A DNA stretch of 64,000 nucleotides, from assembly GCA_964016885.1 (NCBI GenBank), contig OZ024741.1, positions 279,124,001 to 279,188,000 of the forward strand. Direction: 5' to 3'. Made by a program: the position numbers and the translations under genes. The notes under the pieces are model-generated. The model searched no databases. It had not been told where the DNA came from and saw only the letters and a list, made by a program, of their open reading frames with translations. This DNA comes from Eledone cirrhosa (lineage: Eukaryota). Of this stretch, positions 9,633-63,436 are shown in pieces (positions within the stretch are counted from its first letter, which is position 1; every line of letters begins with the position of its first letter).

Positions 9633-10462
9633 GCTAGCAACCGAAGTGCATAATAAAGTTATATCTGTATATATACAGAGTGGGTAACCGAGACTGCAAC
9701 TACATGTATATAAATATATACATTTTAATATGTAAGCATTTAAATATGCCAGAAAATACGAATTTCCTGCAAATTGAAAGAATGATAAGCACTTTTAATC
9801 GATTTTCGGCTCTTATTGGACACTCATCAGATCAACCACAAGGAGATATGTATTTGATAGGTATGTATACCCATTCACTCCCAATATTATTCCGAAATGG
9901 ACATTCTAATTTGCATATAATTATTGTTGGTAATTAATTAAGATACATATTAATACATGCGCTAGGAGCCGAAGTGTATAATGAAGTTATATCTGTATAA
10001 ATATGGTATGTGTAAACGTGACTCTAACAATGTATATATAAATATACACATGTTTAATATGTAGACTTGTAAACATGCAAAAAAAATACGAATTTCCCTG
10101 CAAATTGAAATAATTGTTTCTACTTTTGGCACAAGACCAGCCATGACCCCAGTGCATTACTGGTGCTTTATTTTGTCGACTCGTAAGGATGAAAGGAAAA
10201 ATTAACTTTGGGAGGATTTGAACTCAGTACGTAAAGAGCCATAACTCTATGCTACAAAGCATGGTGTTTGACGCTCTACCGATACTGCCAATCCAACGCT
10301 CTGCAAATTAAAATGATGATAAACACCTTCAATTGATTTCGGATCTAATTAAATCCTCATCAGAAAGTGTGTATATCTTCCAGTCAACCACAATGAAACA
10401 TGTATACATTACCTTCTGAAGATCCAATTAGATCCGAAAATCGATTGAAGGTGTTTATCATT
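9633..10462 (-). mobile_element. Two diverged ~328-bp tandem HHR-containing units plus an inverted fragment; family A SINE inserted at 10112-10300
   Basis: Unit starts at 9633 and 9961; HHR cores at 9790-9832(-), 10324-10369(-), 10411-10452(+); SINE TSD CTGCAAATTGAAAT/CTGCAAATTAAAAT. Confidence 0.65.
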
Positions 10463-10636
10463 ATAAATAGATAAAGGGATAATTATAAAGGGATAAAAAT
10501 AAATATCATTATAAATAGATAAAGGGATAATTATGTTTATATACTGAGTGATACATTGCTGCATCAGTAGATATACTGGTGTGTGTGTGTGTCATTGAGT
10601 GTGTGCGTGTGTGTGTGGTGTGCATGTGTGTGTGTC

Positions 10637-10809: not shown

Positions 10810-11430
10810 TTTTCGAATATTAATAAAAACATTCGATTCGATTGCAATTTTCGCTCTACATGGCTCAGTCTGCTAATATACAAATCAGGCCGATCAGTCA
10901 CTGTGTATTTTTGAAAATAGCATATATTTTCACTAGGGTTCATTCTACTGACATGGCTATAAAATTGAGGCTTGTTTGCATAATTGCAAACGAATCGAAT
11001 GTTATTATTAATATTCGAAAAACTCAGATTACATTTATTGTATTCAGCCATGTAGAGCGAAAATTTTCTTTTTTATTTGAATTTGGCAAAGCCGGCCATT
11101 TATCGCTTCATATACAGGAAACTGACTGGCCAGTCTACTGATATGCAAATCTGGCTGATCAGTGGATCTGCTAATATGCAAATCAGGCCGAGCAGTCACT
11201 GTGTACTTTTGAAAATAGCATATATTTTCATTAGCTCTGACAGTTTGGCAGGTGAACAGTGAGCTGTACTGATGAAGGGTGATACCCAGAAACATTAGTG
11301 TCTACATGCCAACACAAGAGCAAGAATGAAGGGTTCATTCTACTGACATGGCTATAAAATTGAGGCTTGTCTGCATAATTGCAAACGAATCGAATATTAT
11401 TATTAATATTCGAAAAACTCAGATTACATT

Positions 11431-11434
<4 letters not shown>
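10810..11434 (+). mobile_element. Retrozyme-like non-coding tandem element, family F1 (395-bp unit)
   Basis: GGGTTCATTCTACTGAC repeats at 10936 and 11331; one HHR per complete unit; no ORF; other copies at 56558-57690. Confidence 0.7.
11261..11306 (+). ncRNA. Type I hammerhead ribozyme (F1)
   Basis: TGTA-CTGATGA-A-GGGT-GAT-ACCC-A-GAAA-CA-TTAG-TG-TC-TACA. Confidence 0.75.
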
Positions 11435-11469
<35 letters not shown>

Positions 11470-11472
<3 letters not shown>

Positions 11473-11590
11473 GATATATTAACAAATGGAAACTATATTT
11501 ATAAAACCATATTTATTTCATTATACATATTTCAAGGACACCGAGTTAAATTATGGTGCGCTTTCATAAGATAAAATATAATATAGATCA
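11470..11590 (-). mobile_element. pLTR fragment of the family at 58834-59185, with degenerate HHR
   Basis: Near-identical AAATGGAAACTATATTTATAAAACCATATTTATTTC; stem II CACC/GGTG here vs TACC/GGTA there. Confidence 0.65.
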
Positions 11591-11626
11591 TATAATATAG
11601 ACCAGTCTGATAAAATATAATATAGA

Positions 11627-14764: not shown

Positions 14765-15676
<912 letters not shown>

Positions 15677-15843
15677 TATATATATATATATACATACATA
15701 TATGAGAACGTATACATACATATATGAGAACTGTATACATATATGTATGTACGTATACATACATACTTACATTTAAGTAAGTGCCGTACTAAGAGTGAGA
15801 AATGAAATTTCGTTTTCATTTTATTACAACTTATATATATATA

Positions 15844-17715
15844 TATAAACGTTTGAATATGTGTAATAAGGCCAAAACAATGCAGGTATGGACATAGAAA
15901 AAAGAATGCAATAGTAAAAGAATTCGTCTTTCACCTTGAATTTATTTAAATGTCCTTAATTTTCGAGATAATATCTCTTCTTCGGAGGGAAATAAAGGTC
16001 TCAGACCAGCGTCTTAAATCTCTAGCCAAGCCATTCTGACCGGAAATAGTATAGAGTATCTGTTCTAACTCTAATATCAAAGAATTAAAATTAGGTGGAA
16101 AAAGAGTAGTCTCCCTTTAAGAGGGGTTTGTTTAGGGTTTATTTTTTATTTTTTTATTTTTTTTTTTTATATACGTGCCTGTATATGTGTGTGGGAGAAG
16201 GTATGTGGGTGGGTGTGTGTGAGTGTGGGAAGATAGGTCTAATCGTAAAAGTGGGGGGTAGGTGTTATCTGGTGTTAGAACTGGTTTTGTGTGTGTATGT
16301 GTGAGAGAGAATAAGTGGAGGTGTAAGCGTGTGTGTGTGCGCGTGCGTGTGTGTGGGGTGTGTAAATATGGGGCTAGAGGCCCTATCAGGTTATAAATTG
16401 GGTGTTGAGCTCTAGTCTATTATTGATTGGTGGATGTGTTTTATCTATAATAAGTGCTTCCTTAATTCTAAGATTGCCGAGGTTTCTTTCCTTAGTTTCT
16501 ATCCTAACTGTTATGTTTTTATCGGTGTTTTTGTGGTGGATGTCGTGTATCCGTTCAGTTTGAGTACTCAAACTGAACGGATACACGACATCCACCACAA
16601 ACCGTGCCAGAAAGAACAGAGGACACCACACCCGAGGCACTAACACTTGCTTCCTGAAGCTCCCACACTTCAGTGAAGAAACAACAACAGCCATCCGCAG
16701 AGCCATCAGACGAGAGGGACTGGATATCCAACTGGCCCATTCGGGTCCTTCTCTGCGCGGACGGCTGGCCAAGAGACACTCCACCAGACATGACAACTGC
16801 TGCAGACTAGCCAACTGCCCCATCAACGACACAGACCTATGCCACCAGGCTTACGTAGTATACAGACTAGAGTGTGACAAATGCAACAACTTCTACGTAG
16901 GTAGCACCACCAGACCACTCCACATAAGAATAAAAGAACACCTCAATACTAACGCTTCCTCATTTAAGAAACACCTAGTTAAATGCAAAAACACCGATAA
17001 AAACATAACAGTTAGGATAGAAACTAAGGAAAGAAACCTCGGCAATCTTAGAATTAAGGAAGCACTTATAGATAAAACACATCCACCAATCAATAATAGA
17101 CTAGAGCTCAACACCCAATTTATAACCTGATAGGGCCTCTAGCCCCATATTTACACACCCCCACACACACGCACGCGCACACACACACGCTTACACCTCC
17201 ACTTATTCTCTCTCACACATACACACACAAAACCAGTTCTAACACCAGATAACACCTACCCCCCACTTTTACGATTAGACCTATCTTCCCACACTCACAC
17301 ACACACACCCACATACCTTCTCCCACACACATATACAGGCACGTATATAAAATTTAAAAAAAAATAAATAAATAAAAAATAAACCCTAAACAAACCCCTC
17401 TTAAAGGGAGACTACTCTTTTTCCACCTAATTTTAATTCTTTGATATTAGAGTTAGAACAGATACTCTATACTATTTCCGGTCAGAATGGCTTGGCTAGA
17501 GATTTAAGACGCTGGTCTGAGACCTTTATTTCCCTCCGAAGAAGAGATATTATCTCGAAAATTAAGAACTTTTAAATAAATTCAAGGTGAAAGACGAATT
17601 CTTTTACTATTGCATTCTTTTTTCTATGTCCATACCTGCATTGTTTTGGCCTTATTACACATATTCAAACGTTTATACCTCATTACACAATGCTTCAAGT
17701 GAACTATAACCTCCT

Positions 17716-18013: not shown

Positions 18014-21347
<3,334 letters not shown>

Positions 21348-30807: not shown

Positions 30808-31612
30808 AGTTACGGTCCTTGCCATTCTGAGTTCAAATCCCGCCGAGGTTAACTTTGCCTTTCATCCTTACGGGGTCGATAAAATAAAGTACCAGTAATG
30901 CACTGGGATAATTGAAACAATTAGTAGAAACAATTATATATATATATATATATATATACTTCAATGTGATATACCTTTCATGATAGGGTCTATGACGTAG
31001 TTAGAACTCAATATAATCCGTTAGCATGTACTTCAGTGGGATCCACTGATTGGTTCCGTGTTTCGCTGAGTCAATCTTTCAGATACACAATGTATGGGGT
31101 CGACCCCATGTATTATATCTGATAGTATACAGTTCCCTAACTGTTATAGATGAGTCAATATATCGATATGATCAACCCTCCGAAATGATCGTAAAACAAT
31201 AAATGAAATATGTAAAATAACTTGCCTGGATTGGCAGTATCGGTAGAGGGTCGAACGCCATGCTTTGCAGCATAGAGTTACGGCCCTTTGCTGTCTGAGT
31301 TAAAATCCCGCCGAGGTTAACTTTGCCTTTCATCCTTACGGGGTCGATAAAATAAAGTACCAGTAATGCACTGGGATAATTGCTGGCCTTGTGCCAAAAC
31401 TAGAAACAATTATTAAATGATATAATTGTTTCTACTTTAGGCACAAGGCCAGCAATTTACCAGTACATTACTGGTACTTTATTTTATCGACCCCGTAAGG
31501 ATGAAAGGCAAAGTTAACCTCAGCGGGATTTGAACTCAGACTGTAAAAGGGAGGTAACTATGCTAGAAAACATGGCGTCCAACCCTCTACCGATACTGCC
31601 AATTCACCGCCC
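30808..31612. mobile_element. Family A SINEs: 30808-30930(+), 31228-31410(+), 31425-31612(-)
   Basis: Consensus match; the last two form a tail-to-tail pair. Confidence 0.85.
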
Positions 31613-31676: not shown

Positions 31677-32154
31677 AGTGCGACAATGGATCTTCACAGA
31701 CACGCACACTCTTAAGCTAGCGATTACGTAATTCAACGTGAATCGGCGTGATACAGAATGTTATAAAGCTGGCATTTTGAATAAGCTCAGTGGATTGGAG
31801 CAACGTGAAATAAAGTGTCTTGCTCAAGGATCCAACACGCCGCTCAGTCTGGGAATCGAACTTACGAGGTTACGATAGTAAGCGCCGAAAACCATAACCA
31901 CAAAATCGCGCTCTTTTATACACACACACACACACACACACTTACGAGGTTACTATCGTAACCTCGTAAGTTCGATTCCCAGACTGAGCGGCGTGTTGGA
32001 TCCTTGAGCAAGACACTTTATTTCACGTTGCTCCAATCCACTGAGCTTATTCAAAATGCCAGCTTTATAACATTCTGTATCACGCCGATTCACGTTGAAT
32101 CACGTAATCGCTAGCTTAAGAGTGTGCGTGTCTGTGAAGATCCATTGTCGCACT
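31677..32154. repeat. ~205-bp inverted duplication of a family B SINE segment
   Basis: 31677-31881 is the reverse complement of 31950-32154 with about one mismatch. Confidence 0.9.
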
Positions 32155-32787: not shown

Positions 32788-35182
32788 ATAATAATAAAAT
32801 TGAAGACTAAATTCCAAAGAGGGCTCGATCAGGAAAATATATATCAAATATATAAGAACCGTAGAGTAAATATTTATTAAAATAACAGATTAAAGTTTAA
32901 GCAAAGAATCGCTGCTTTCACCCTTAACGGGATCTTCTGAAACTAACAAAGTCACTCTGTAAACGCAGAACTGGATATTTCAAAAAACGTTGCAACCGGA
33001 GGAAGACAGGAAGACGATACTTTGGTTCGTGGAAACGTTCGCTGGCAAAGAACGGGAAAAAACGAATAATACGTCATTAATAGGAGCGGTGAAAAACAAT
33101 TACGCGCAAAGACAGAACCACGTTTATGGTATAAAAGAGGTCGTAGACTAATGTTCTCTTAGGTGGTGCATAGAGACGTTCTCTGGCAATGAACGAAAGG
33201 TTGAGGCCAATCTCTCGGTCGTTAATTACCTCGACGTTACCCTCAATTTATTGAACGGGTTGTATTACCCGTATAGAAAGCCGAATGATACGCTTAATTA
33301 CATAAGTAAGCATTCCAACCATCCTGCCAGCATAACCAAGAACCTGGTAAAAAAACGTTTCGTTGAGGCTTTCCCGTCTTTCCACCAACGAGCGCATTTT
33401 CAACGACCATTCCACTTATTACAATGAAGCTCTTGCTCGAAGTGGATTTGTCGATAAGGTAGCTTATACAGAGTACGAAAATAGACCTAGAAGAAATAGA
33501 TCCCGTCGCATTTGTTGGTTTTACCCACCATATAATATGGAGGTGGCCACACCATTAGCTAAGATCTTTCTTTCCCTTATTACGAAGTTTTTTCCCACTA
33601 CACATAAATATAGTAAAATTTTTAATAGAAATACTATTAAAATTTCTTACTCTACGACTCCTAACCTTGCACATAACATCACAGCTTCAAATTTAGCTAA
33701 ACTACCTAGCCGTAGGAACACGTGCAACCCTGTAGTTAGTACTAACTGTAATTGTAGGAATCGGGCTGATTGCCCCCTATCCGGGAAATGCCTCTCTAGT
33801 AACATTGTCTACAAATGTAAGGTTGTAACACCCACGTCCCGTAGGGCCTACATAGGGTTAACCGCCAATAGTTTCAAGCAGCGTCTTTACATGCATACCC
33901 ATTCTTTTCGTTACCCTCTAAGAAGGAATATGACGTCACTTTCAGCTTATATCTGGAGTCTAAAAGACAACCACACCCAATATAAGTTACACTGGGAGAT
34001 CCTAGCTAGGGCTAGATCGTATTACGGAAATAAAAGACCATGTGACCTCTGCGCCGCTGAGGCCCTGGAAATACTCTACGCCACAGACCACATCTTAAAC
34101 AAAAAATCTGAGGCAATTTCGGCCTGTAAACATAAATTGCACAAAACTTTCCTGTATTACAGCCCCACGTTATACTCTAACGGATAGCACGATCTATACG
34201 TGGATATTTTACGTCTTGATTTGGGAGCTAAGTATATGTTTTGTTTATTCCTTTACTTATTTGCATAGGTAAGTATATTTTACCCGTATGGTTTGTGAAG
34301 GTATGTATACCTTCTCGTACGTATATTTGACTGTTATGGCGTATAATTTTTACATATTCTGGTATTTAGGGTTTGGCTATGTGTATACGGGAGTTTTGCG
34401 TCTGTGTGAGTATGCAGGTTCGTACGTATGGTGGGTGTGTGTATATGTGTACTTCTTGTTTTAGTTGACTTACGTCTCCGAACATTCGTGTATTTATTTG
34501 TAGGTATGTGTGTGCGCTTGTTATATACGTATTTATTTACTTATATACGTTTATATAATTATTTATTTATTTGTACACAAGCATACACACACACACATAT
34601 TTATATGTGCGTGGTTTTGTATACCTATGGTAAGGTTTTGCGTATGCTTGTGTATGTACGTATCTGTTTGCGTGTATGTATTTATTTGTTTCTATTACTT
34701 CTGTATTGTATTTATTTACTTTGTTCTTAACTCTGTAGCGGAGATTCATTTGGTCTCCTAGTTAGAATTTTAGTCTACGACTTCTGCTATACCATTTACG
34801 TGGTTTTGTCTTTGCGTGCTATTGTTCTCCACACTCCACATATGACTTATTATCTTCGTTTTTTCGTTCATTGCCAGAGAACGTCTCTATGCACCACCTA
34901 AGAGAACATTAGTCTACGACCTCTTTTATACCATAAACGTGGTTCTGTCTTTGCGCGTAATTGTTTTTCACCGCTCCTATTAATGACGTATTATTCGTTT
35001 TTTCCCGTTCTTTGCCAGCGAATGTTTCCACGAACCAAAGTATCGTCTTCCTGTCTTCCTCCGGTTGCAACGTTTTTTGAAATATCCAGTTCTGCGTTTA
35101 CAGAGTGACTTTGTTAGTTTCAGAAGATCCCGTTAAGGGTGAAAGCAGCGATTCTTTGCTTAAACTTTAATCTGTTATTTTA

Positions 35183-41627: not shown

Positions 41628-44600
41628 TTTTCTCTTTCTCTTAGTTTCGAGTATATTTTTTTGACCGGCCACCTTCCTGGTGGGAAGGTTGTAAAAGAAA
41701 AGAAATTGTCATCCCTTGAATCGCAAGAATGTTTTGCATATTTTGAAGGTGCCAGCTATCGCAGCCATTTGTAGGCTATGAATTAGGGAGCTGCGCTTTT
41801 TGTCCGCAAATCCAAGTTCGGTCATACTTTGGTCCAAGCGGGTTGGTATATAACCCGTAGCACCAATAATGATGGGTATGAAGCTAAAGGTGTATCTTGG
41901 ATACTGGATTTGTAAGCTCCTCATCAATGGTCCGTAGATGTCCTCCTTCTCCTGTATTTTTCTGACAACGTTTACATCAAGTGGGCAGCTGATCTCCACA
42001 ACAGAACACGTTTTCAATGTGTGGTCCCAAACTACAATATCAGGCCGGTTGTGCTTTAATTTGGTGGCAGTTTTTATTTTCAGGTTCCACCAGTATTCCT
42101 TAGTGCCATCTGTCTCAATATATTCTTCCTCGTTTGTTGTTAATTTTGTTTTCCGAAGTGCGTTCCAGATAGTTCTAGCTATCCCATCGTGTCTCATGGG
42201 GAGGTAGTAGCGAGATGACATTCTTTCGCAGCTGGCAACAATGTGGCTTACATCCTCGATCTTTGTTTTACATAGCCTACATTTATTGTCAGCTGCTGGC
42301 CCTCCTCTTTTGTGCAGCAGATATTTGGTAGGGAGTTCTTGTTCCTGTATTGCATAGAGATATCCCTCAAGGTGTGATGTCATAAACTTGTCGGAACTCC
42401 ATGCCAGGCTTTTTGAGTGGTTTATCCCCTCTATGGTCTGTGTTTTACGCCTCAAGTATCCATGCACAACTTTCTCTGTAAATTGGTCAATTTTCTTTTC
42501 TTGTTTGAACATTGAATAGGATCTTCCGATTTCTCTGGGTGAGAGATTTATATCAGGCTTTATTCCATATCTCTCCTCCAGATCAGTCGCTATTCTAATG
42601 ATATTTCTTTTTTCATGCTCATAAACCTGAGCAAGATGGTCGCCAACCTTTTTCCTCTGTTGAAGGTGTTGCTTCAGTGTTACTATCCGGGTCTCATATG
42701 TTGTTAATATTGATTTTAGACCCCGGCCACCTTCCTTGCGTGAGAAGTATAGCCGATCCACATCACCATTGATGTTAAAGTTCCCAGTAACACTGAGAAG
42801 TTTACGAGTTCTAACATCCATCTCACTTAGTTCTTGCAATGACCAGTTCAGTAGGCCAAATGTTGGCGTTATAATTGGCACAGCATAGGTATTGTGGGCA
42901 ATGTATTTGTTGTATGCTGACAGTTCTGATGACCATATTTTTTTTACTCTTCTGAGGTATTCAGTTCTGGTTCTCTCCTTATTTATGGGTCCATCATATC
43001 TGACATTCTCATCCTGTCCAAGATATCTGTAGTTGTCACCTGACTGCAGAGGTTGTATTGTCAGGCCGTTCATATCTAGATTTCTAGAGGAGGGCACAGC
43101 TCTTCCACGTTTTGCTGCCAAATATGCACACTTGGACTCACCAAATTTCATTTTGATGTCGGTTGAAAATTGTGTAATGAGGTCCAATTGTTTCTTGATG
43201 TCATTGATATTTGGCCCATACAACTTCAGGTCATCAACAAAGAAAAGATGGAAGATACTTCTGGGCCCACTTCTTTGTCCACCTTGTTTCCTGAGTAGGT
43301 AAGATAGTGGATTCAGTGAGAGAACGAAGAGTAGTACTGACAAGCTATCACCCTGAAAGATGCCCTTCTGGTAATGCATCCTATCAGTCTTAACCTGCTC
43401 CTTCTCACCTCTAAGGATCAAATTGGTGTACCAGTTCTTGGTCAGGCGTTCAACAGCAGCTACTAATGGTTGTGGGACTTTAGCTAACTGTAAAGCCTTA
43501 ATAATCCACCCATGAGGTACACTATCAAATGCTTTTTGATAGTCCAGCCACACGACAGTCATGTTTCTGCGATTCTTTGTTGTTTTTTCCTGAATCATTT
43601 TGTTAGTTAGTAGGTGATCTATGCAACCCCACACCTCCCTCTTTCCACCAGCTTGCTCAGGTGTTATGATGTTGTTGGTAGCACAGTGATCCTGTAAGAA
43701 CAGGTTAAGGCACCCAGTATATAATTTATACATGATGTTTTGGCAGGCAATTGGGCGGTAATTTTTAGCAAGGGTGGTTTGGCTATTTTGGGGAATGAGG
43801 AGAGTAGTGGCAGTTGATAACCATCTGGGCAGTTCTTGTGTGCCCTTAATAGTTTCTGTAAACAGCCGTATGAGATCTTGCCGATAGAAAGTGAAATTCT
43901 TCAACCAGTATCCTGTAATGAGGTCTGGGCCTGGCGATTTCCTATTCGACATTTTCTGTAGAGCTGTTTCCAGTATTGACCCATCTATGTCATATTGTTT
44001 TGTCTGGACATGTTGGCAGTAGTCCTGTTCCAGTTGTTTTAGCCAATTAGCTTGTCTGTTGAATCCGTCATCCGTTTCCCATACAGATCTCCAGTAGTTC
44101 TCAACCTGTTCTTTTGAAGGGGTGTCGTTTACAGGGATTGAGCTTTTGCCACCGAAGCTGCGATAAACTGATTTAGGATCTCTGGCAAACAATCTATTTA
44201 GCACTTGTCGTTTATGGGCTGTTGACTTATATTTTAGTCTTTCTGTTGTAGCTGTGAGTTGTTGTTTCAACTGGTGTAATTTGGAGTTCAAAGTTTTAAA
44301 TTTGGTATCTCCAAATCGTCTCTCTAACTTTTTCTTTAGGTCTTCCTGGTGTCGTGTGAAGTTTCTCTCTATGTTGCATTTCATAACGACTGCGATGTGT
44401 GAGATACTTCGTCCCAGGGACAAAATTTTGGTTTTTAAATTTCGCATCCACGCTGGTTCAGGCTTTCTGTTTGTATCTTGATTGCGTGGTTTTAGATGTG
44501 TGTTATATGATAGCAATGTGACAGCTGAAACATATAACAAAACATTGAGCGTTTCAAATGTCGTTTCTACACCTTTAGATCGTATAGCCTTCAGATAATT

Positions 44601-45850
44601 GCCAGCTATTTCGTTCACCGCTTCCAATTCCAATTTAGTGGGTTCTTTACTGACTCTAGTGTTGTATGGTCTGTCACTCACATTAAGGCTGTGTATCTCT
44701 TGAAACATATCGTTCCATATCACTTGTAGGGTGCCCACAAGTTTTTGGTGCTCTGTTTGTTCAGTAGAGTCATGAATTGCAGCCTCGTTGTTGATGTGGT
44801 GACAATTACTACTAGAGTCAGCTGACCTTTCTCGCTGTTCTTCAGTGGAAGTGGGATGGATTTCAGCAAAATTGTTGGTGAGCTGTTCACTGTTAGATTT
44901 AGCCGGCCATTCTCTTTGTCTGTCAGTGGAGGTGGGGTGGTTGTCTACAAGAGCTGTATTTGTAGTATCACTCGATTCCGTTAGATGTATCAATTTACAT
45001 CTAATGATACGTTTTGCCTGTTCATTTAGATGCTTTGGAGAAAAGTCTAATTCTGGGTGTTTGGAGTTCCATAAAGTTTTTAGCCTTTGCATAAAACCGA
45101 ACTTTTGGGGTTCAGATTGTTTGTATGCTTCATATAATTCTTTGTTAAGCTCGTAGCTCCACTGTATACAACGGTTGTAATTGCGATTTGGTCGAAGGAG
45201 ACTTGTACTTTTTGCCATGATGAGTTCGTCTATTCACTAATATTTTGTATTTATTTTTTTTAAATAGTCGATGATCTTCTTTAAAAGTTACGACAAAGTT
45301 CTGTCAGAATCAAATTTAAAGTTATTCACAGCTTGGGTAATATTTCTTTTCAGTTAGTTTTTAATTCTACAACTGTGTTTTAAACGTTGTTCTTGAATCG
45401 TTTGAATCGAGAACAAAAAGAACCGTTACTTAGTATATTCCTTTACGAATGTAATATAATATAACAACGCTGTATTTATATGTTAAAGTTTATGTATCAT
45501 TCATATAAATAGGTGTTCTACAACATATTCACAACATTCACAGTTCAAACACTTATATTTTTGTTTCTGAATCGAAAACGTTACTTTTATATTTCTTTAT
45601 AAATGTAATATAACAACGTTGCATTTATATGTTAAAGTGTATGTATCGTTCATATATCATAAGTGTATGTATCGTTCATATAAATAGGTGTTTTACAACA
45701 CACTTACAGTTCAAACACTTATGTAGAATTATTGTATGTAATCTTACCGCGTAATGTAGCTCAACTTTTTCCAATATATGGTATGTTGCCTTCATGTAAG
45801 CCGTAATTACACACGTCCAATTATCGGACACTGACCACAACGGTCGCCAT
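41628..45850 (-). mobile_element. Apparently full-length R4/Dong-like RLE non-LTR retrotransposon in an (ATGT)n tract
   Basis: Single intact ORF, ~630-nt 5' UTR, ~80-nt 3' UTR, both junctions abut TACA/TAAA repeats. Confidence 0.85.
41709..45218 (-). CDS. Non-LTR polyprotein: RT, CCHC finger and restriction-like endonuclease (1169 aa)
   Basis: KSPGPD, NYRPI, DYQKAFDSV, GIFQGDSLS, FFVDD, YRYLG, GGRGL, CRLC..H..C, RHD, RPDIVV..EIS. Confidence 0.95.
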   Translation of the reverse strand: MAKSTSLLRPNRNYNRCIQWSYELNKELYEAYKQSEPQKFGFMQRLKTLWNSKHPELDFSPKHLNEQAKRIIRCKLIHLTESSDTTNTALVDNHPTSTDRQREWPAKSNSEQLTNNFAEIHPTSTEEQRERSADSSSNCHHINNEAAIHDSTEQTEHQKLVGTLQVIWNDMFQEIHSLNVSDRPYNTRVSKEPTKLELEAVNEIAGNYLKAIRSKGVETTFETLNVLLYVSAVTLLSYNTHLKPRNQDTNRKPEPAWMRNLKTKILSLGRSISHIAVVMKCNIERNFTRHQEDLKKKLERRFGDTKFKTLNSKLHQLKQQLTATTERLKYKSTAHKRQVLNRLFARDPKSVYRSFGGKSSIPVNDTPSKEQVENYWRSVWETDDGFNRQANWLKQLEQDYCQHVQTKQYDIDGSILETALQKMSNRKSPGPDLITGYWLKNFTFYRQDLIRLFTETIKGTQELPRWLSTATTLLIPQNSQTTLAKNYRPIACQNIMYKLYTGCLNLFLQDHCATNNIITPEQAGGKREVWGCIDHLLTNKMIQEKTTKNRRNMTVVWLDYQKAFDSVPHGWIIKALQLAKVPQPLVAAVERLTKNWYTNLILRGEKEQVKTDRMHYQKGIFQGDSLSVLLFVLSLNPLSYLLRKQGGQRSGPRSIFHLFFVDDLKLYGPNINDIKKQLDLITQFSTDIKMKFGESKCAYLAAKRGRAVPSSRNLDMNGLTIQPLQSGDNYRYLGQDENVRYDGPINKERTRTEYLRRVKKIWSSELSAYNKYIAHNTYAVPIITPTFGLLNWSLQELSEMDVRTRKLLSVTGNFNINGDVDRLYFSRKEGGRGLKSILTTYETRIVTLKQHLQQRKKVGDHLAQVYEHEKRNIIRIATDLEERYGIKPDINLSPREIGRSYSMFKQEKKIDQFTEKVVHGYLRRKTQTIEGINHSKSLAWSSDKFMTSHLEGYLYAIQEQELPTKYLLHKRGGPAADNKCRLCKTKIEDVSHIVASCERMSSRYYLPMRHDGIARTIWNALRKTKLTTNEEEYIETDGTKEYWWNLKIKTATKLKHNRPDIVVWDHTLKTCSVVEISCPLDVNVVRKIQEKEDIYGPLMRSLQIQYPRYTFSFIPIIIGATGYIPTRLDQSMTELGFADKKRSSLIHSLQMAAIAGTFKICKTFLRFKG

Positions 45851-50826: not shown

Positions 50827-52831
50827 CACTTCACCAATGCAGTGGCGAAAGCAAGTGAAACCCTGGTGCACTTCACCAATGCAGTGGCGAAAGCAAGTGA
50901 AACCCTGGTGCCGAGGAAAAAGAACTAAGGGAAGCACGTCAGCTCTGCAAACCCAAAAGTGTGTGCAGCCAGAGAACACCTGAAAGCTGCCAGGGACCAA
51001 TTCTATGCTGATCCTACGGAGGAGAGGATGGAGACTGTGGAGGTGATGAGGGAAGAGCTCTGTACCGCTTACACTGAGGTCAGAGAGGAGGCACTGATAG
51101 AGAAGATCAGAAGTGTGGAGAGAGCGGTTGACAGATCTGGATGTAAGGAGAGCTGGATGATCATCAACGAGATCACAGGGAGGAAGAAAAGGTGTTCGAG
51201 TCAGATCCAGGGAACGGGGCCCGAGGATAGGAAGAGGAAATGGCTAGACCATTTTAGGGCCCTACTAGGAGAGCCACCCTCCACAGCCCAGAGCACTGGG
51301 GAGATCAGGCGGCTGTTTGAGGAACTGGATGTTGAGACAGAGCCCTTCACCAGAGAGGAGCTTCAGAGAGCCAAGAAGAGGATCAAGGAGGGCAAGGCTC
51401 ATGGAGAAGATGGAGTGGCATCAGAGGTGATGAAGAGGTGTGATTTTGATGATATCATCCTGGGGTTCTGTAACGGGGCACTGGAGAAAGGAGTTGCCCC
51501 GAATCAGTGGAGGATCAGTAACATCGTCCCAGTGCCAAAGAAGGGAGATCTCTCTAACACCAACAACTACCGGGGGATCTCACTGACGTCACTTGTGGCA
51601 AAGACCCTCAACAGGATGATTCTTAACAGGATCCAGCCTGAGATGGAGAAGAAGCTCAGGGACAACCAGAACGGCTTCAGGGAGGGTAGATCAACCACCA
51701 GTCACATCCTGATGCTGAGGAGGATATTAGAGGGAGCTAGAGCAAAGGGCCTTCCTGCGGTCATGGTTTTCATTGACTTTAGGAAGGCCTTTGATTCTGT
51801 GGACCGTTACTGCCTGATGAAGATCTTACAGGCTTATGGAATCCCCAAGAGGATAGTGGACCTGATAGCACTGCTCTACACCAACACCAAAGCCCAAGTC
51901 ATTACACCTGATGGGATAACAGAGTTCTTTGAGATACTGGCTGGAGTGCTCCAGGGAGATACATTGGCTCCCTACCTTTTTATCATTGTAGTGGACTATT
52001 GTATGCGCCTTGCACTGGAGAAATACCAGGACTCTGGCTTTACTGTAGCACCGGCTCAGAGCAGGAGAGTTGGGGCGAAAAAGGTATCGGATGCTGAATT
52101 TGCCGACGACATAGTTTTGGTGACAAATACAGTGAAGGAGGCAGAGGATTTGATGCGGGAGGTTGAGACTGTGTCGATGAGTGTGGGGCTGAGAATGAAT
52201 GAGACTAAAACAAAATATCTGGTAGAGAATGTTGAGAAGCCAGAGGGGATCACTAATGTAGGCGGGAAGCCGCTGGAATTGGTTGAGGACTTCCTGTATT
52301 TGGGAGCAAAGATTGGGAATACGGAAGATGATGTGGTTGAGAGGAAGAGCAAGGCCTGGGCGGCGTGTCACAGCTTGAGATCGGTGTGGAAGTCGGACCT
52401 TCGTAGAGACCTGAAAATCCGCCTCTTCATTGCTGTAGTGGAGTATGTGCTGCTGTATGGGTCTGAGACTTGGACACTGACCAAGAGACTCACTCAGATG
52501 GTGGATGGGTGCTACACGAGAATGCTGAGGATGGCTCTGAACATTAATCAGTATACACTGAGGATGAAAAACTCAGAGCTGTATGGGAGCATCCCAAAAG
52601 TCAGCTCAAAAGTCACACAGAGGAGACTGAGGTTGGCTGGACACGCTCACCGACATCCAGAGTTGACATTGCACTCAGTGCTCCTTTGGGAGCCCCTACA
52701 TGGACACACTAGAAGAGGAAGACCAAGGTTAACATATGGTCTGTTGGAGATGCAGGATATGGCAGCGATAATGAGGGACAGAGACCGCTGGAGAGAACTC
52801 GTCCATGGATCTCGGGAATTTTACCCGCCTT

Positions 52832-52833
<2 letters not shown>
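50827..52833 (+). mobile_element. 5'-truncated RTE-like LINE, RT domain open (50959-52833)
   Basis: PKKGD..NYRGISL, QNGFR, FIDFRKAFDSV, GVLQGDTLAP, EFADD, FLYLG, LLYGSETW, RRGRPR; ends at the stop codon then (TA)n. Confidence 0.92.
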
Positions 52834-54077: not shown

Positions 54078-54457
54078 CTAATAAATACAGTGTTGATTAT
54101 AAGCTCCACAAAAACCTAGTCACACGAACAATCAGAATAAAGATAGGGAGATTGGAGATGGCGAACAAAGAGGTGCATGCTGGGGTTGTTAAGCATCGCT
54201 GTTAAATGCCAGGTCATAAGGGGATTCGACAAGATGCAGATATAATAGATGGCACACAAAAACAAAGAATGCAAAAGCAAAAAATGCAAAAGCATAAAAA
54301 ATACATTAAAAATATACATAAAAAATACAGACAAAGGTTAAAACATAATAAAAATTATAATAAAGTAATAAAAAATATAAAAATAATAAAGATAATAAAA
54401 TAAAATAAAGTAAAATAATTTAAAAAATATATATATATAATGAAAAATAATAAAATA

Positions 54458-55441
54458 ATTGTTTCTACATTAGGCACAAGGCCTGCAATTACCCAGTGCA
54501 TTACTGGTACTTTATTTTATCGACCCCATAAGGATGAAAGGCAAAGTCAACCTCGGCGGGATTTGAACTCAGATCGTAAAGGGACGTAACTATGCTGGAA
54601 AGCATGGCGTTCGACCCTCTACCGATACTGCCAATCCACCGCCACTTCCAATGAAATTATTGTTTCTACTTTAGGCACAAGGCCAGCAAATACCCAGTGC
54701 ATTACTGGTACTTTATTTTATCGACCCCGTAAGGATGAAAGGCAAAGTCAACCTCGGCGGGATTTGAACTCAGATCGTAAAGGGACGTAACTATGCTGGA
54801 AAGCATGGCGTTCGACCCTCTAACGATACTGCCAATCCACCGCCACTTCCAATGAAATTATTGTTTCTACTTTAGGCACAAGGCCAGCAATTACCCAGTG
54901 CATTACTGGTACTTTATTTTATCGACCCCGTAAGGATGAAAGGCAAAGTCAACCTCGGCGGGATTTGAACTCAGATCGTAAAGGGACGTAACTATGCTGG
55001 AAAGCATGGCGTTCGACCCTCTAACGATACTGCCAATCCACCGCCACTTCCAATGAAATTATTGTTTCTACTTTAGGCACAAGGCCAGCAATTACCCAGT
55101 GCATTACTGGTACTTTATTTTATCGACCCCGTAAGGATGAAAGGCAAAGTCAACCTCGGCGGGATTTGAACTCAGATCGTAAAGGGACGTAACTATGCTG
55201 GAAAGCATGGCGTTCGACCCTCTAACGATACTGCCAATCCACCGCCACTTCCAATGAAATTATTGTTTCTACTTTAGGCACAAGGCCAGCAATTACCCAG
55301 TGCATTACTGGTACTTTATTTTATCGACCCCGTAAGGATGAAAGGCAAAGTCAACCTCGGCGGGATTTGAACTCAGATCGTAAAGGGACGTAACTATACT
55401 GGAAAGCATGGCGTCCGACTCTCTACTGATACTGCCAATCC
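54458..55441 (-). repeat. Five tandem family A SINE units, exact 201-bp period
   Basis: GTTTCTAC at 54461, 54662, 54863, 55064, 55265. Confidence 0.95.
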
Positions 55442-55589
55442 AAAAATAATAAAAGATAATAAGATAATAAAATAATATAATATAATAAAATTAAAAATTA
55501 AAAAGAAAAAAGATTTTTTAAAATTTTTTTAATTAAAAAATTTAAAAATTAAGAAATTAAAAAAGTAAATAAATTTTTTTTTTTTCATT

Positions 55590-56169: not shown

Positions 56170-56540
56170 TAGAGTGGCCCTTAGCAATAGGTAATTTTTC
56201 GAAAGTTAAAATTTTGCTACTCCCACAGCGGAAAATGGATGTTTGCCCTATACCTGCGCTCTGTCACCAGCTTTGCAAGTTGCCTTCCCCATTATATTTA
56301 TGGTCACTTATCCTTCTAATACCAAGAATAAGTCTGAGCAAGTTTTTAATTTAAGAGAAAATTTTTATCTAAAAAAATGACTTTCCGGGCGAAAACTTCA
56401 AAATTTCGCGGTCGATGAGAATCGCCTTGCAGTTGCCCGTTTGAGGTAAAATTTTACATAGATTGGCTTTTTTATTAATTGGAACAAGATAAGGGATGGG
56501 AGCTAAACTTTTAGAAAGTTGAAAAATAAGGGCCACCCTA
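56170..56540. mobile_element. hATm-family MITE related to the 52870 element
   Basis: TIRs TAGAGTGGCCCTTA / TAAGGGCCACCCTA; TSD ATGTATAT/ATGTGTAT (7/8). Confidence 0.8.
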
Positions 56541-56557
56541 ATGTGTATATATATATA

Positions 56558-57684
56558 AAAGAAAACTTCGCTCTACATAGCTGAATACAATAAATGTAAT
56601 CTGAGTTTTTCGAATATTAATAATAACATTCGATTTGTTTGCAATTTTGCAAACAAGCCTCAATTTTATAGCCATGTCAGGAGAAGGAACACTTCATTCT
56701 TGCTCTTATATTGGCATGCAAACAGAACTGCAGACACTAATGTTTCTGGGTATCACCTTTCATCAGTACAGCTCACTGTTCACCTGCCAAACTGTCAGAG
56801 CTAGTAAATATATATGCTATTTTCAAAAATACAGTGACTGATCGGCCTGATTTGCATATTAGCAGACTGGCTGATCAGTCAGATCTGCATATTAGCAGAT
56901 CCACTGATCAGAGGCTTGTTTGCAAAATTGCAAACGAAATTGGCAGTATCAGTAGAGGGTCGGACGCCATGCTTTGAAGTATAGAGTTACCTCCCTTTAT
57001 GATCTGAGTTCAAATCCCGCCGAGGTTGACTTTGCCTTTCATCCTTACGGGGTCGATAACATAAAGTACCAGTAATGCACTGGGTTATTGCTGGCCTTGT
57101 GCCTAAAGTAGAAACAATTATTAATATTCGAAAAACTCAGATTACATTTATTGTATACAGCCATGTAGAGCGAAATTTTCTTTTTTATTTGAATTTGGCA
57201 AAGCCGGCTATTTATCGCTCGTATACAGGAAACTGACTGGCCAGTCTGCTCATATGCAAATCTGGCTGATCTGTGGATCTGCAAATATGCAGATCTGACT
57301 GATCAGCCAATCTGCTAATATGCAAATCAGGCCGATCAGTCACTGTATATTTTTGAAAATAGCATATATTTTCACTAGCTCTGACAGTTTGGCAGGTGAA
57401 CAGTGAGCTGTACTGATGAAGGGTGATACCCAGAAACATTAGTGTCTGCAGTTCTGTTCGCATGTCAACATAAAGCAAGAATGAAATGTTCATTCTCCCG
57501 ACATGGCTATAAGATTGAGGCTTGTTTGCAAAATTGCAAACAAATCGAATGTTATTATTAACGAGGTTAGCTTTGCCTTTCATCCTTAAGGGGTTGATAA
57601 AATAAAGTACCAGTAATACACTGGGATAATTGCTGGCCTTGTGCCAAAAGTAGAAACAATTATTAATATTCGAAAAACTGGGAT

Positions 57685-57690
<6 letters not shown>
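56558..57690. mobile_element. Two oppositely oriented, differently permuted F1 retrozyme-like copies interleaved with family A SINE pieces
   Basis: 56558-56910(-) and 57118-57560(+) align to 10936-11434; SINE at 56940-57120 and 57562-57660. Confidence 0.75.
57398..57459 (+). ncRNA. Type I hammerhead ribozyme (F1); mirror copy at 56725-56774(-)
   Basis: GAACA-gt-GAGCTGTA-CTGATGA-aGGGT-GAT-ACCCa-GAAA-CA-TTAG-TG-TC-TGCAGTTC-TGTTC. Confidence 0.85.
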
Positions 57691-57715
<25 letters not shown>

Positions 57716-57719
<4 letters not shown>

Positions 57720-58495
57720 GTGGTTACACAACAGTTAGTTCACCATACCGAGAACAATTGTTTCACCTTCGCGGATCTTCAGCTCGGGATGTGTATGGTT
57801 ATAGGAACAGGAAGGACAACCGTACGAACGCGCATGCGCAGAAACTCGGTCACTTCACACAGGCAATACTAGACTGCATGCGGGTGGTGTAAGGGAGGTA
57901 ACTGCGAAAGTCCGGAAAGTTTTTTGGTTGAAAATAAAATAAAAAAAATTAAAAATAAAATTACAAAGAATCAGTCCGGAGCCTTGTAGTTATGAAATAG
58001 ATGTTTGGTGACGTGTGGACAACGTGTGAAACATTCACTTCTCGTGTTTAGGCAATCACTATTGCGTAATCTCTTTAGGATAGTTATTCGTTCGTCAATA
58101 CATAAGCCACACGTCGGATTTCCCCTTGCGTATGGCTTGAACTTAGTGATGGCTTTCCATTAATGGAGTACCCTATACTTGAGTCCTTGAGGGACCATAC
58201 GTGGCTCGCGAGTTTCGTGGATGAACGTCTGTCCGGGTATCTGAAGGTAGACTGGTGGTTCAGGAAACGCTCCTTGAATCGGCCCTCCGCCATGCCCACA
58301 TAGGATTTGACCTCCTGTGGTTCGTTTGGTCGGTTGGAAGTGACCACAGCTTCATAGATTACAGCTGGTGTGTTTCATTGTTGTTGAAGGGGGAAAGCTT
58401 CGGGCTTACGGCAAGAGCACCCTGGTGGGGTGTTGCTCCTAGGGCTGCTGGTGATGTGGGCCTTCATGTTCTTAGCGCAGCCGTACCTAACTCGT
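57716..58495 (-). mobile_element. Penelope-like 3' fragment (degenerate GIY-YIG) with canonical HHR at 57748-57787
   Basis: VIYEAVV..SYVGMAEGRFKERFLNH; CCGAG-CTGAAGA-tCC-GCGAA-GGt-GAAA-CAATTG-TT-CTCGG. Confidence 0.88.
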
Positions 58496-58549
58496 CCCTT
58501 GGACTGAGTGCTCTACCACTACGGATATTACCTTCCAGTGTTCCACCAC

Positions 58550-58667
<118 letters not shown>

Positions 58668-58745
58668 TATATGTGTATATGTGTGTATGTATGTGAATAT
58701 ATGTGTGTATATATATATATATATGTATATATTTTATATATATAT

Positions 58746-59185
58746 GCAAAAGTTCTATTTAAAGTTGTTGGGATACAACAAGTAAATATTTTTATATAAC
58801 TGATATAAAGCACTCGACAAGTTTTTGGAGTAGATATACGATATTAATAAATGGAAACTATATTTATAAAACCATATTTATTTCATTATACATATTTCAG
58901 GGATACCACATTAATTTATGGTATGCCTTCATCAGACAAAATACAATATATAACAGTTTTACAAATAGCTTTGACGTACCCTTTTAAAATGCAACCATAT
59001 CCAGACAGCCTCCAAAAGCAATGGTTGCATTTTAAAAGGGTACGTCAAAGCTATTTGCAAAACTGTTATATATTGTATTTTGTCTGATGAAGGCATACCA
59101 TAATTTAATGTGGTATCCCTGAAATATGTATAATGAAATAAATATGGTTTTATAAATATAGTTTCCATTTATTAATATCGTATAT
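58746..59185. mobile_element. Fold-back pLTR insertion (arms 58834-58998 / 59021-59185, 22-nt loop) with HHR motifs
   Basis: CTGATGA-AGGcATACCATA..TGTGGTATcCCT-GAAA-TAT-GTA at 59084-59130. Confidence 0.8.
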
Positions 59186-59250
59186 ATATATATATTTATA
59201 TATATATGGGTATATATATATATATGTATGTGTGAATGTATGTGTGTATG

Positions 59251-59285
<35 letters not shown>

Positions 59286-59417
59286 GTATGTATGTGTATA
59301 TATATATATATATGTATACATATATATACACACATATACGTGTGTATATGTATATATATATGTATATATGTGTATATATATGTATATATGTATATATATA
59401 TATTCACATATATATAG

Positions 59418-62563: not shown

Positions 62564-63436
<873 letters not shown>

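Follow-up and report, generated by a model that had tools for sequence, protein, structure and literature searches.

We propose with good confidence that F1, a hammerhead repeat family found at two loci (locus 1, 10810-11439; locus 2, 56553-57693) of a 64,000-nt stretch of Eledone cirrhosa DNA, hereafter the window, is a protein-free, non-autonomous element copied in trans by the reverse transcriptase (RT)-endonuclease of a Penelope-like element (PLE), most plausibly one of the (TA)n-targeting Hydra clade. F1 insertions display the following PLE marks: a fixed 3′ end, a 37-nt tail, 5′ truncation, a partial tandem, an inverted 5′ copy and a (TA)n target. A preliminary description of this DNA had already named a Penelope-like RT as the probable mobiliser, and the insertion anatomy supports that assignment by a more direct argument than the one offered there. 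Whereas the mobilisation of animal retrozymes has so far been argued from co-occurrence and sequence kinship, in F1 it is the anatomy of the insertions that bears the PLE marks. The class of F1, the hammerhead retrozymes, being already known, the gain is mechanistic and moderate. Neither F1 nor mapped retrozyme ends were found reported in the literature on cephalopod hammerheads, Penelope elements and retrozymes, a survey whose scope left Repbase, Dfam and subscription journals outside.

The F1 unit and its hammerhead

Both loci were mapped on a 437-nt unit, for which the stretch 57117-57553 (+) served as the reference, with position 1 at 57117 and the ribozyme cut after position 330 (57446). 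The ends of this full unit are set by a SINE and not by the F1 element. A joint that goes back 437 nt occurs in all four sequencing runs compared (X1, X4 and X11 from organism A and X5 from organism B, out of 13 listed; X2, X3, X6-X10, X12 and X13 were left out); as a circle junction it was discarded, because it marks the cut point that we chose for the unit. The single family with three arms recognised in the preliminary description is real (84-95% similarity by BLAST). The statement that it has no ORF stands for the sense strand (longest frame, 56 aa), but not for the antisense strand, where one of the three F1 copies has a 129-aa frame. This frame, the length of which is reached by 3 of 1000 shuffles, was rejected as a gene because it is frameshifted in two of the three copies; a longer reading of 175 aa containing it gave no match in Pfam. 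No ORF combining RT and GIY-YIG lies within the unit. Compared with shuffled sequences, the unit folds stably both as a linear molecule (z −7.1; 0 of 100 shuffles as stable) and as a circle (z −9.4; 0 of 60; 70% of the bases paired), with palindromes and subrepeats contributing to the self-pairing of the circle fold. At 437 nt, F1 has the short (150-450 bp), ORF-less and low-GC unit that characterises non-LTR retrozymes, and its original characterisation as an ORF-less, retrozyme-like hammerhead repeat is upheld, the unit and the type I hammerhead both being real. Judged from its sequence, F1 is thus a non-LTR retrozyme in make-up that would work like a non-autonomous PLE. It is housed in AT-rich animal DNA, rich in microsatellites and retroelement fragments.

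The forward arm of locus 2 contains a type I hammerhead (57398-57459, +) comprising an 8+5 bp stem I, a 4-bp stem II, a 3-bp stem III, the core motifs CUGAUGA (at 57413) and GAAA, and a GUC before the cut after 57446. It had been presented as a complete type I ribozyme with an 8+5 bp stem I and a GUC site; the core, stem I and the predicted cut site hold, but the motif is not fully canonical, its two atypical features being an A opposite an A at the base of the 4-bp stem II and a stem III of 3 bp. Across the three copies, 50 of the 51 pair cells are kept, with no two-sided changes, and among the 40 of 183 differences listed from the four runs no majority variant touches the ribozyme core or the two A residues that face each other. 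We regard this motif as a candidate self-cleaving ribozyme, the core of which appears conserved. Its 3-bp stem III is self-complementary, and the 10-nt segment that bears it pairs completely with a second copy of itself (duplex of −8.8 kcal/mol). Such a self-pairing short stem III is the pattern of animal hammerheads that work as dimers (PMC4209133). For the isolated motif, the hammerhead fold reaches −14.5 kcal/mol versus −20.7 kcal/mol for the minimum-energy fold. The axolotl HHR_Amex2, a weak cleaver, resembles F1 in having a mismatch, of the U-U type, at the base of stem II (PMC7229834). Within the window, a mismatch at this position is seen in three different hammerheads, at 57782 (−; U-U), 15196 (−; U-U) and 57413 (+; A-A).

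The two other F1 hammerheads depart further from this motif. That of the inverted arm of locus 2 (56720-56781, −; cut after 56733) has lost one stem II pair through one changed base, and that of locus 1 (core at 11269, cut after 11302) is without the 12 nt of stem I directly past the cut, so that this copy is probably dead as judged from its sequence. A core scan of both strands of the window returned eight candidate type I hammerheads, two of them in F1, and Rfam gave no match in the window at its gathering score and, among its 27 weak matches in 56400-59300, no hammerhead. Exact-pattern scans for the F1 ribozyme matched no stretch in metagenome contigs or in viral contigs. In run X4, one contig covering 57399-57468 stands at a depth of 644, far over its neighbours, and carries changes at 57431 and 57436 beside the ribozyme core; it represents either an amplified locus or a variant subfamily.

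Fixed 3′ ends and ragged 5′ ends of F1 copies

The region 56553-57693 is a single insertion consisting of two arms that meet head to head at 56911, one of them extended by a tail of 37 nt. The inverted arm (56553-56911, −) is 5′-truncated and runs from unit position 150 to 437 and on to 68-72, its 3′ end carrying the tail and passing into a short (TA)n. The forward arm opens with 56911-56938 (+; unit 401-428), abutting the inverted arm with no spacer, and is then interrupted by a near-full repeat (56939-57122, +), which we take to be a SINE, lodged inside the terminal hairpin of the first F1 repeat at the cost of about 9 nt of the unit. After the full unit and, at 57522-57561 (+), its first hairpin and the 5′ half of the second (terminal) hairpin, a 5′-truncated SINE (57562-57664, +) splits the terminal hairpin of the second repeat at the same site, flanked on both sides by the 8-nt duplication ATTATTAA. 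The true 3′ end of the arm follows at 57659-57693 (+; unit 1 to 31-35) and enters the (TA)n at 57688-57716. In two consecutive F1 repeats, therefore, a SINE occupies one and the same site, the ATT-rich loop of the terminal hairpin, and this hairpin is intact at 10995-11018, 11390-11413 and 56610-56633. As the corresponding site of the inverted arm is free of a SINE, and as 96 of 104 positions agree between the two SINEs, these most likely arrived later, as separate insertions.

It follows from this map that 57118-57560, previously regarded as a copy with ends of its own, is bounded on both sides by SINE borders, the arm continuing at 56911-56938 and 57659-57693, while the segment order formerly given for 56558-56910 (−) was confirmed by mapping on the unit. 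Elsewhere in the window, the SINE has 13 long matches (135 nt or more) and four shorter matches, at 76-95% identity, and it presumably resembles repeats of octopus genomes; with its tRNA origin in question, ARAGORN found no tRNA. Other occurrences comprise a reversed SINE end at 57227 in another F1 copy of run X11, a head-to-tail SINE array at 54449-55442 (−; 4.9 copies, period 201, 98% matches) and an inverted SINE pair at 31227-31606.

Locus 1 begins with short inverted fragments (10810-10865, −; unit 43-62, then 414-437-18), followed by a forward arm (10866-11439, +) that reads unit positions ~190-262, lacks 263-371, and continues with 372-437, a full unit and positions 1 to 36-41 before entering (TA)n. 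Its segment order, as first described, was likewise recovered by mapping, and the join at 10936/10938 proved to be a 109-nt deletion (unit 263-371) that takes out a whole ribozyme.

The three long arms end on the 3′ side at unit positions 31-35, 36-41 and 68-72, each passing into (TA)n. These ends fall at two sites separated by 37 nt, the offset between the two arms of locus 2, inside a zone of 40 nt that lies 138-179 nt beyond the cut. The 5′ ends vary (unit 401, about 190, and 150), and an inverted 5′ piece is present at both loci. An AT-rich or (TA)n target is common to all three long arms; the exception is the short inverted left end of locus 1, which has neither (TA)n nor tail. Given these fixed 3′ ends, the copies do not correspond to an RNA circle opened at random. 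The view that they are different circular permutations was mostly wrong, the permutations being mimicked by SINE borders and a deletion; fixed termini had been named beforehand as speaking against a circular template, and the 3′ end is indeed fixed, in the window and in all four runs.

In these runs, the F1 unit matched 6390 contigs of X1, 110 of X4 and 37 of X5, as well as 40,346 raw reads of X11 (a RAD library), which indicates that in two organisms or more F1 is present in high copy number. Loose ends running behind 57151 (unit 35) into (AT)n occur in all four (56, 3 and 1 contigs in X1, X4 and X5, and 582 reads in X11), and further loose ends lie at 57157, 57173, 57176 and 57185; the groups 57151-57157 and 57173-57185 agree with a fixed 3′ end that has an optional tail. 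The depth peaks just inside the fixed end and falls just past it (from 554k to 40k in X1, from 1959 to 0 in X4 and from 89.5 to 8.8 in X5), and then recovers gradually toward the ribozyme (270k there in X1, where the range along the unit is about 14-fold). As summed contig depth is not copy number, only the shape of the profile was used: it is the one given by copies that share a fixed 3′ end and are progressively truncated on the 5′ side, and a long array would be flat. The X11 profile is shaped by restriction sites. The piles of X11 read starts and ends at 57464, 57177, 57192 and 57532-35 were rejected as biological ends, for they fall on GCATGC- and AATT-type RAD sites (the enzyme being deduced).

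Head-to-tail continuity of the unit was found in all four runs, and none of the pieces listed spans a unit. In X11, 36% of the reads on F1 continue into unlike sequence. Strand-changing joints number six among the 15 joints listed (95 further), each from one or two read starts; the opposite-strand joint 57266/57513 (104 raw X11 reads) falls within 4 nt of the head-to-head junction of locus 2 and is therefore unlikely to be an assembly artefact. Of the 24 loose ends listed (684 further), none has an ORF-like upstream flank and none starts at the cut. Altogether, most F1 copies appear to be 5′-truncated and dispersed rather than arrayed.

The terminal hairpin, a sister family and Penelope-like elements

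A second ORF-less family, F2 (15030-15320, −), is homologous to F1 and possesses an octamer, a hammerhead (core at 15196) and a twin hairpin, its 3′ end lying in a TA-rich run. Over the part between the octamer and the 3′ end, F2 aligns with F1 with a score of 140, compared with 59.6 ± 7.0 for shuffles (none of 300 as high), and 179 identities over 293 columns; ATATGCAAAT is common to both, 90-95 nt upstream of the ribozyme core. F2 is likewise accompanied by an inverted piece, and its 3′ segment is present a second time (15318-15421 / 15731-15834, and 15462-15535).

The 10-bp terminal hairpin that stands just before the fixed end in both F1 and F2 is paired in 48 of 50 cells (five rows), with four of its ten pairs changed on both sides and wobble (G-U) pairs that favour the ribozyme strand, while a control slid along the alignment shows at most 50% pairing. 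The structure was derived from the same five sequences that served to score the covariation, and as three of the four two-sided changes are differences between F1 and F2, the covariation rests on two lineages. We consider this hairpin as a candidate recognition or start signal for the RT.

In F1, three copies of a 33-nt subrepeat (57240-57339, +) bear ATGCAAAT octamers, at 57254 and 57320 with one variant between, which would make these subrepeats a candidate part of an internal promoter. The octamer is a part of snRNA promoters and also of newt satellite 2. A window-wide enrichment of octamers was considered and dismissed: 10 were found, five of them in F1, against a shuffle mean of 6.05, and 9 of 100 shuffles reach as many.

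Concerning the mobiliser, the window holds the 3′ part of a Hydra-like PLE ORF (33351-34187, +; 278 aa) with a CxCX5C linker, representing the candidate clade. Two of its 25 relatives, of ~700 aa, were inspected and have RWK and DKT/S motifs; the ORF and four of its relatives gave no RT or GIY-YIG match in Pfam. A 3′ fragment of another Hydra-like PLE (57718-58550, −; tblastn E value of 4e-14 to the 33351 ORF) has a broken endonuclease region and its own minimal hammerhead at 57782. It is a separate insertion, placed tail to tail with F1 in a shared (TA)n, and has no homology to F1. These fragments had been considered Neptune-like, an assignment replaced by Hydra-like on the basis of the relatives' motifs and the published description of the Hydra clade. 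Hydra PLEs insert into (TA)n and carry hammerheads, and PLE insertions in general are 5′-truncated partial tandems that often have an inverted 5′ copy as well as a tail of 30-40 bp on one side (PMC8557442). None of eight regions covering the ORF-bearing fragments and the other inverted insertions of the window is similar to F1. As no autonomous partner was thus seen in the window, the Hydra clade is the one proposed for the mobiliser, from the target and from its presence.

In a further head-to-head inverted insertion (58831-59188), each arm has a hammerhead-like motif with a long stem II, and the 3′ end lies 48-50 nt beyond the predicted cut; this element has a decayed copy at about 11470-11600 (−), tail to tail with locus 1 in a shared (TA)n. 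At both F1 loci (57688-57718 and 11435-11472), therefore, the (TA)n in which F1 ends is also entered, from the opposite side, by an unrelated element with a hammerhead, which suggests that one microsatellite was used repeatedly as a target.

Copying mechanism, template and related systems

From this anatomy and by analogy with the anole PLE PAc, we propose the following pathway. A copy longer than one unit would be transcribed, perhaps from the octamer-bearing subrepeats. As in the in vitro work on PAc, in which both strands of AT-rich DNA are cut and extended (PMC11167929), the PLE protein would bind F1 RNA near the twin hairpin and cut both (TA)n strands, and the cDNA would start inside the RNA at one of the two sites ~37 nt apart, 138-179 nt past the cut. 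PAc also starts reverse transcription at two internal sites, the spacing of which equals the tail (PMC11167929); PAc, the source of the mechanism, belongs to the Poseidon clade and starts ~85-92 nt from the cut, as computed from the positions in PMC11167929, closer than in F1. Synthesis would then proceed back through the intact ribozyme to variable stops, thereby producing the fixed 3′ end and ragged 5′ ends seen in the DNA, with a minority of copies longer than one unit and, upon extension on both strands, head-to-head arms with the tail on one. The later SINE insertions and deletions found in the DNA give the look of extra permutations.

As for the template, all three arms cross the cut site and two of them are longer than one unit, which excludes a cleaved linear monomer. 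The F1 DNA is compatible with a ligated circle, with an uncleaved tandem transcript and with template jumping. The earlier claim that the copies point to a circular RNA is not supported, because the DNA is accounted for just as well by an uncleaved tandem transcript, which we hold to be the probable template. The circle idea is already in print, for PLEs (PMC4209133) and for retrozymes (PMC7229834). Applied to F1, it would involve a 437-nt circle, ligated after double self-cleavage of dimer loci elsewhere and copied by the PLE RT from fixed sites. We view this as possible, though the weaker candidate: it agrees with the core free of majority variants in the listed differences, with the self-complementary stem III seen in dimer-activated animal hammerheads (PMC4209133), with the lack of a 5′-end pile at the cut among the loose ends listed (as expected if the cleaved linear monomer is not the template), with the good folding of the unit and with the abundance of circles in mussel, coral and axolotl (PMC7229834). 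It is weakened by the fact that neither of the two window loci holds two ribozymes on one strand, so that neither can release a monomer; by the minority share of full-unit copies in the depth; by PAc, whose dominant substrate is uncleaved RNA and whose ribozyme mutants are still inserted (PMC11167929); and by the failure of eight of nine predicted Xenopus retrozymes to cleave in vitro (10.64898/2026.07.22.740005). A circle reverse-transcribed from arbitrary points, giving random permutations with no fixed ends, is very improbable. The length of two arms, the crossing of the cut by all three, the stability of the circle fold and the circles of mussel, coral and axolotl (PMC7229834) would suit it, yet it is largely refuted by the clustering of the 3′ ends in the three arms and the four runs; moreover, two of the ends on which the permutations were based are SINE borders, and the depth along the unit is about 14-fold uneven in X1.

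Two further explanations concern the nature of F1 rather than its template. F1 might be a mere terminal repeat (pLTR) of an autonomous PLE, with most copies being 5′-truncated remnants; truncated autonomous copies would show the same anatomy (PMC8557442) and Xenopus retrozymes match pLTRs (10.64898/2026.07.22.740005), but both arms that pass the tail run on into the octamer region of the unit and not into an ORF, and ORF-like upstream flanks are absent among the loose ends listed, which makes this explanation unlikely. Helitron/Helentron-type elements, for their part, may also have a hairpin close to one end, a single fixed end, AT-rich target sites and a partial tandem arrangement, with which the corresponding features of F1 are compatible. 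A non-autonomous rolling-circle DNA element of this type, or a DNA satellite, in which the hammerhead would be incidental, is the least credible reading of all, in view of the complete hammerheads of two sister families (F1 and F2), the G-U pairs favouring the ribozyme strand, the head-to-head arms with a 37-nt tail and an uneven depth unlike that of a long array.

Under the PLE-driven copying that we favour, the anatomy of F1 points to two sites of RT initiation and to a covarying hairpin within an RNA of 437 nt, a prediction testable with the existing in vitro PLE assay. Genomic copies that look circularly permuted are, moreover, weak evidence that a circle existed. A bolder and rather doubtful extension is that F1 and F2 form a retrozyme superfamily, in which circular RNAs would be produced from an octamer-type promoter and the covarying hairpin would direct a Hydra-clade Penelope RT to two fixed internal sites of the circle. 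If true, it would provide a retrozyme with a mapped RT start signal, thereby uniting the circle model of retrozymes with the internal initiation of PLEs.

Similarly to F1, the metazoan non-LTR retrozymes of Acropora, Mytilus (350-390 bp) and axolotl (PMC7229834) and of vertebrates (10.64898/2026.07.22.740005) are ORF-less, a few hundred bases long and below 50% GC, with a type I hammerhead, strong self-pairing, head-to-tail continuity and PLEs in the same genome. A retrozyme is counted as active when its head-to-tail repeats include two or more complete hammerheads in a row (10.64898/2026.07.22.740005). In contrast, F1 copies appear 5′-truncated and dispersed, not arrayed, no window locus has two ribozymes, and the F1 ends bear PLE tail and inversion marks not met in the retrozyme descriptions compared. 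As to what mobilises retrozymes, PLEs are called a strong candidate in PMC7229834, and the mechanism is described as still to be worked out in 10.64898/2026.07.22.740005. The endonuclease-bearing (EN+) PLEs of the Hydra clade share with F1 the fixed 3′ end, an optional 30-40-nt tail, 5′ truncation, the partial tandem, the inverted 5′ copy, the (TA)n target and a hammerhead near the 3′ end (PMC8557442), whereas F1 has no ORF and no similarity to the PLE fragments of the window. The non-autonomous Chlamys PLEs, such as MRC1, also form pLTRs and head-to-tail insertions via the PLE machinery; unlike F1, they are green algal, their 3′ end is generally similar to that of an autonomous family and most are described as without canonical hammerheads (PMC8557442). 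Newt satellite 2 is, like F1, a hammerhead repeat with a short self-complementary stem III, and an snRNA-type Pol II promoter is ascribed to it (PMC2220036); F1 differs in that no proximal element was identified in it and in that it is not arrayed in the window.

Compared with the 138-179 nt of F1, the 3′ end lies 36-50 nt past the cut in two other hammerhead-bearing families of the window. Additional head-to-head inverted insertions, which also speak for the PLE reading, were observed at 62726-63286, 31677-32154, 16386-17130, 19641-20069 and 10313-10464. The last of these has a hammerhead in which stem II is 7 bp long, and 16564-17130 matches GIY-YIG (PF01541, E value of 3e-5). The window also contains two long, uninterrupted ORFs of non-LTR retrotransposons, at 41709-45233 (−; 1174 aa, RVT_1 and zf-RVT) and 50929-52833 (+; 634 aa, RVT_1).
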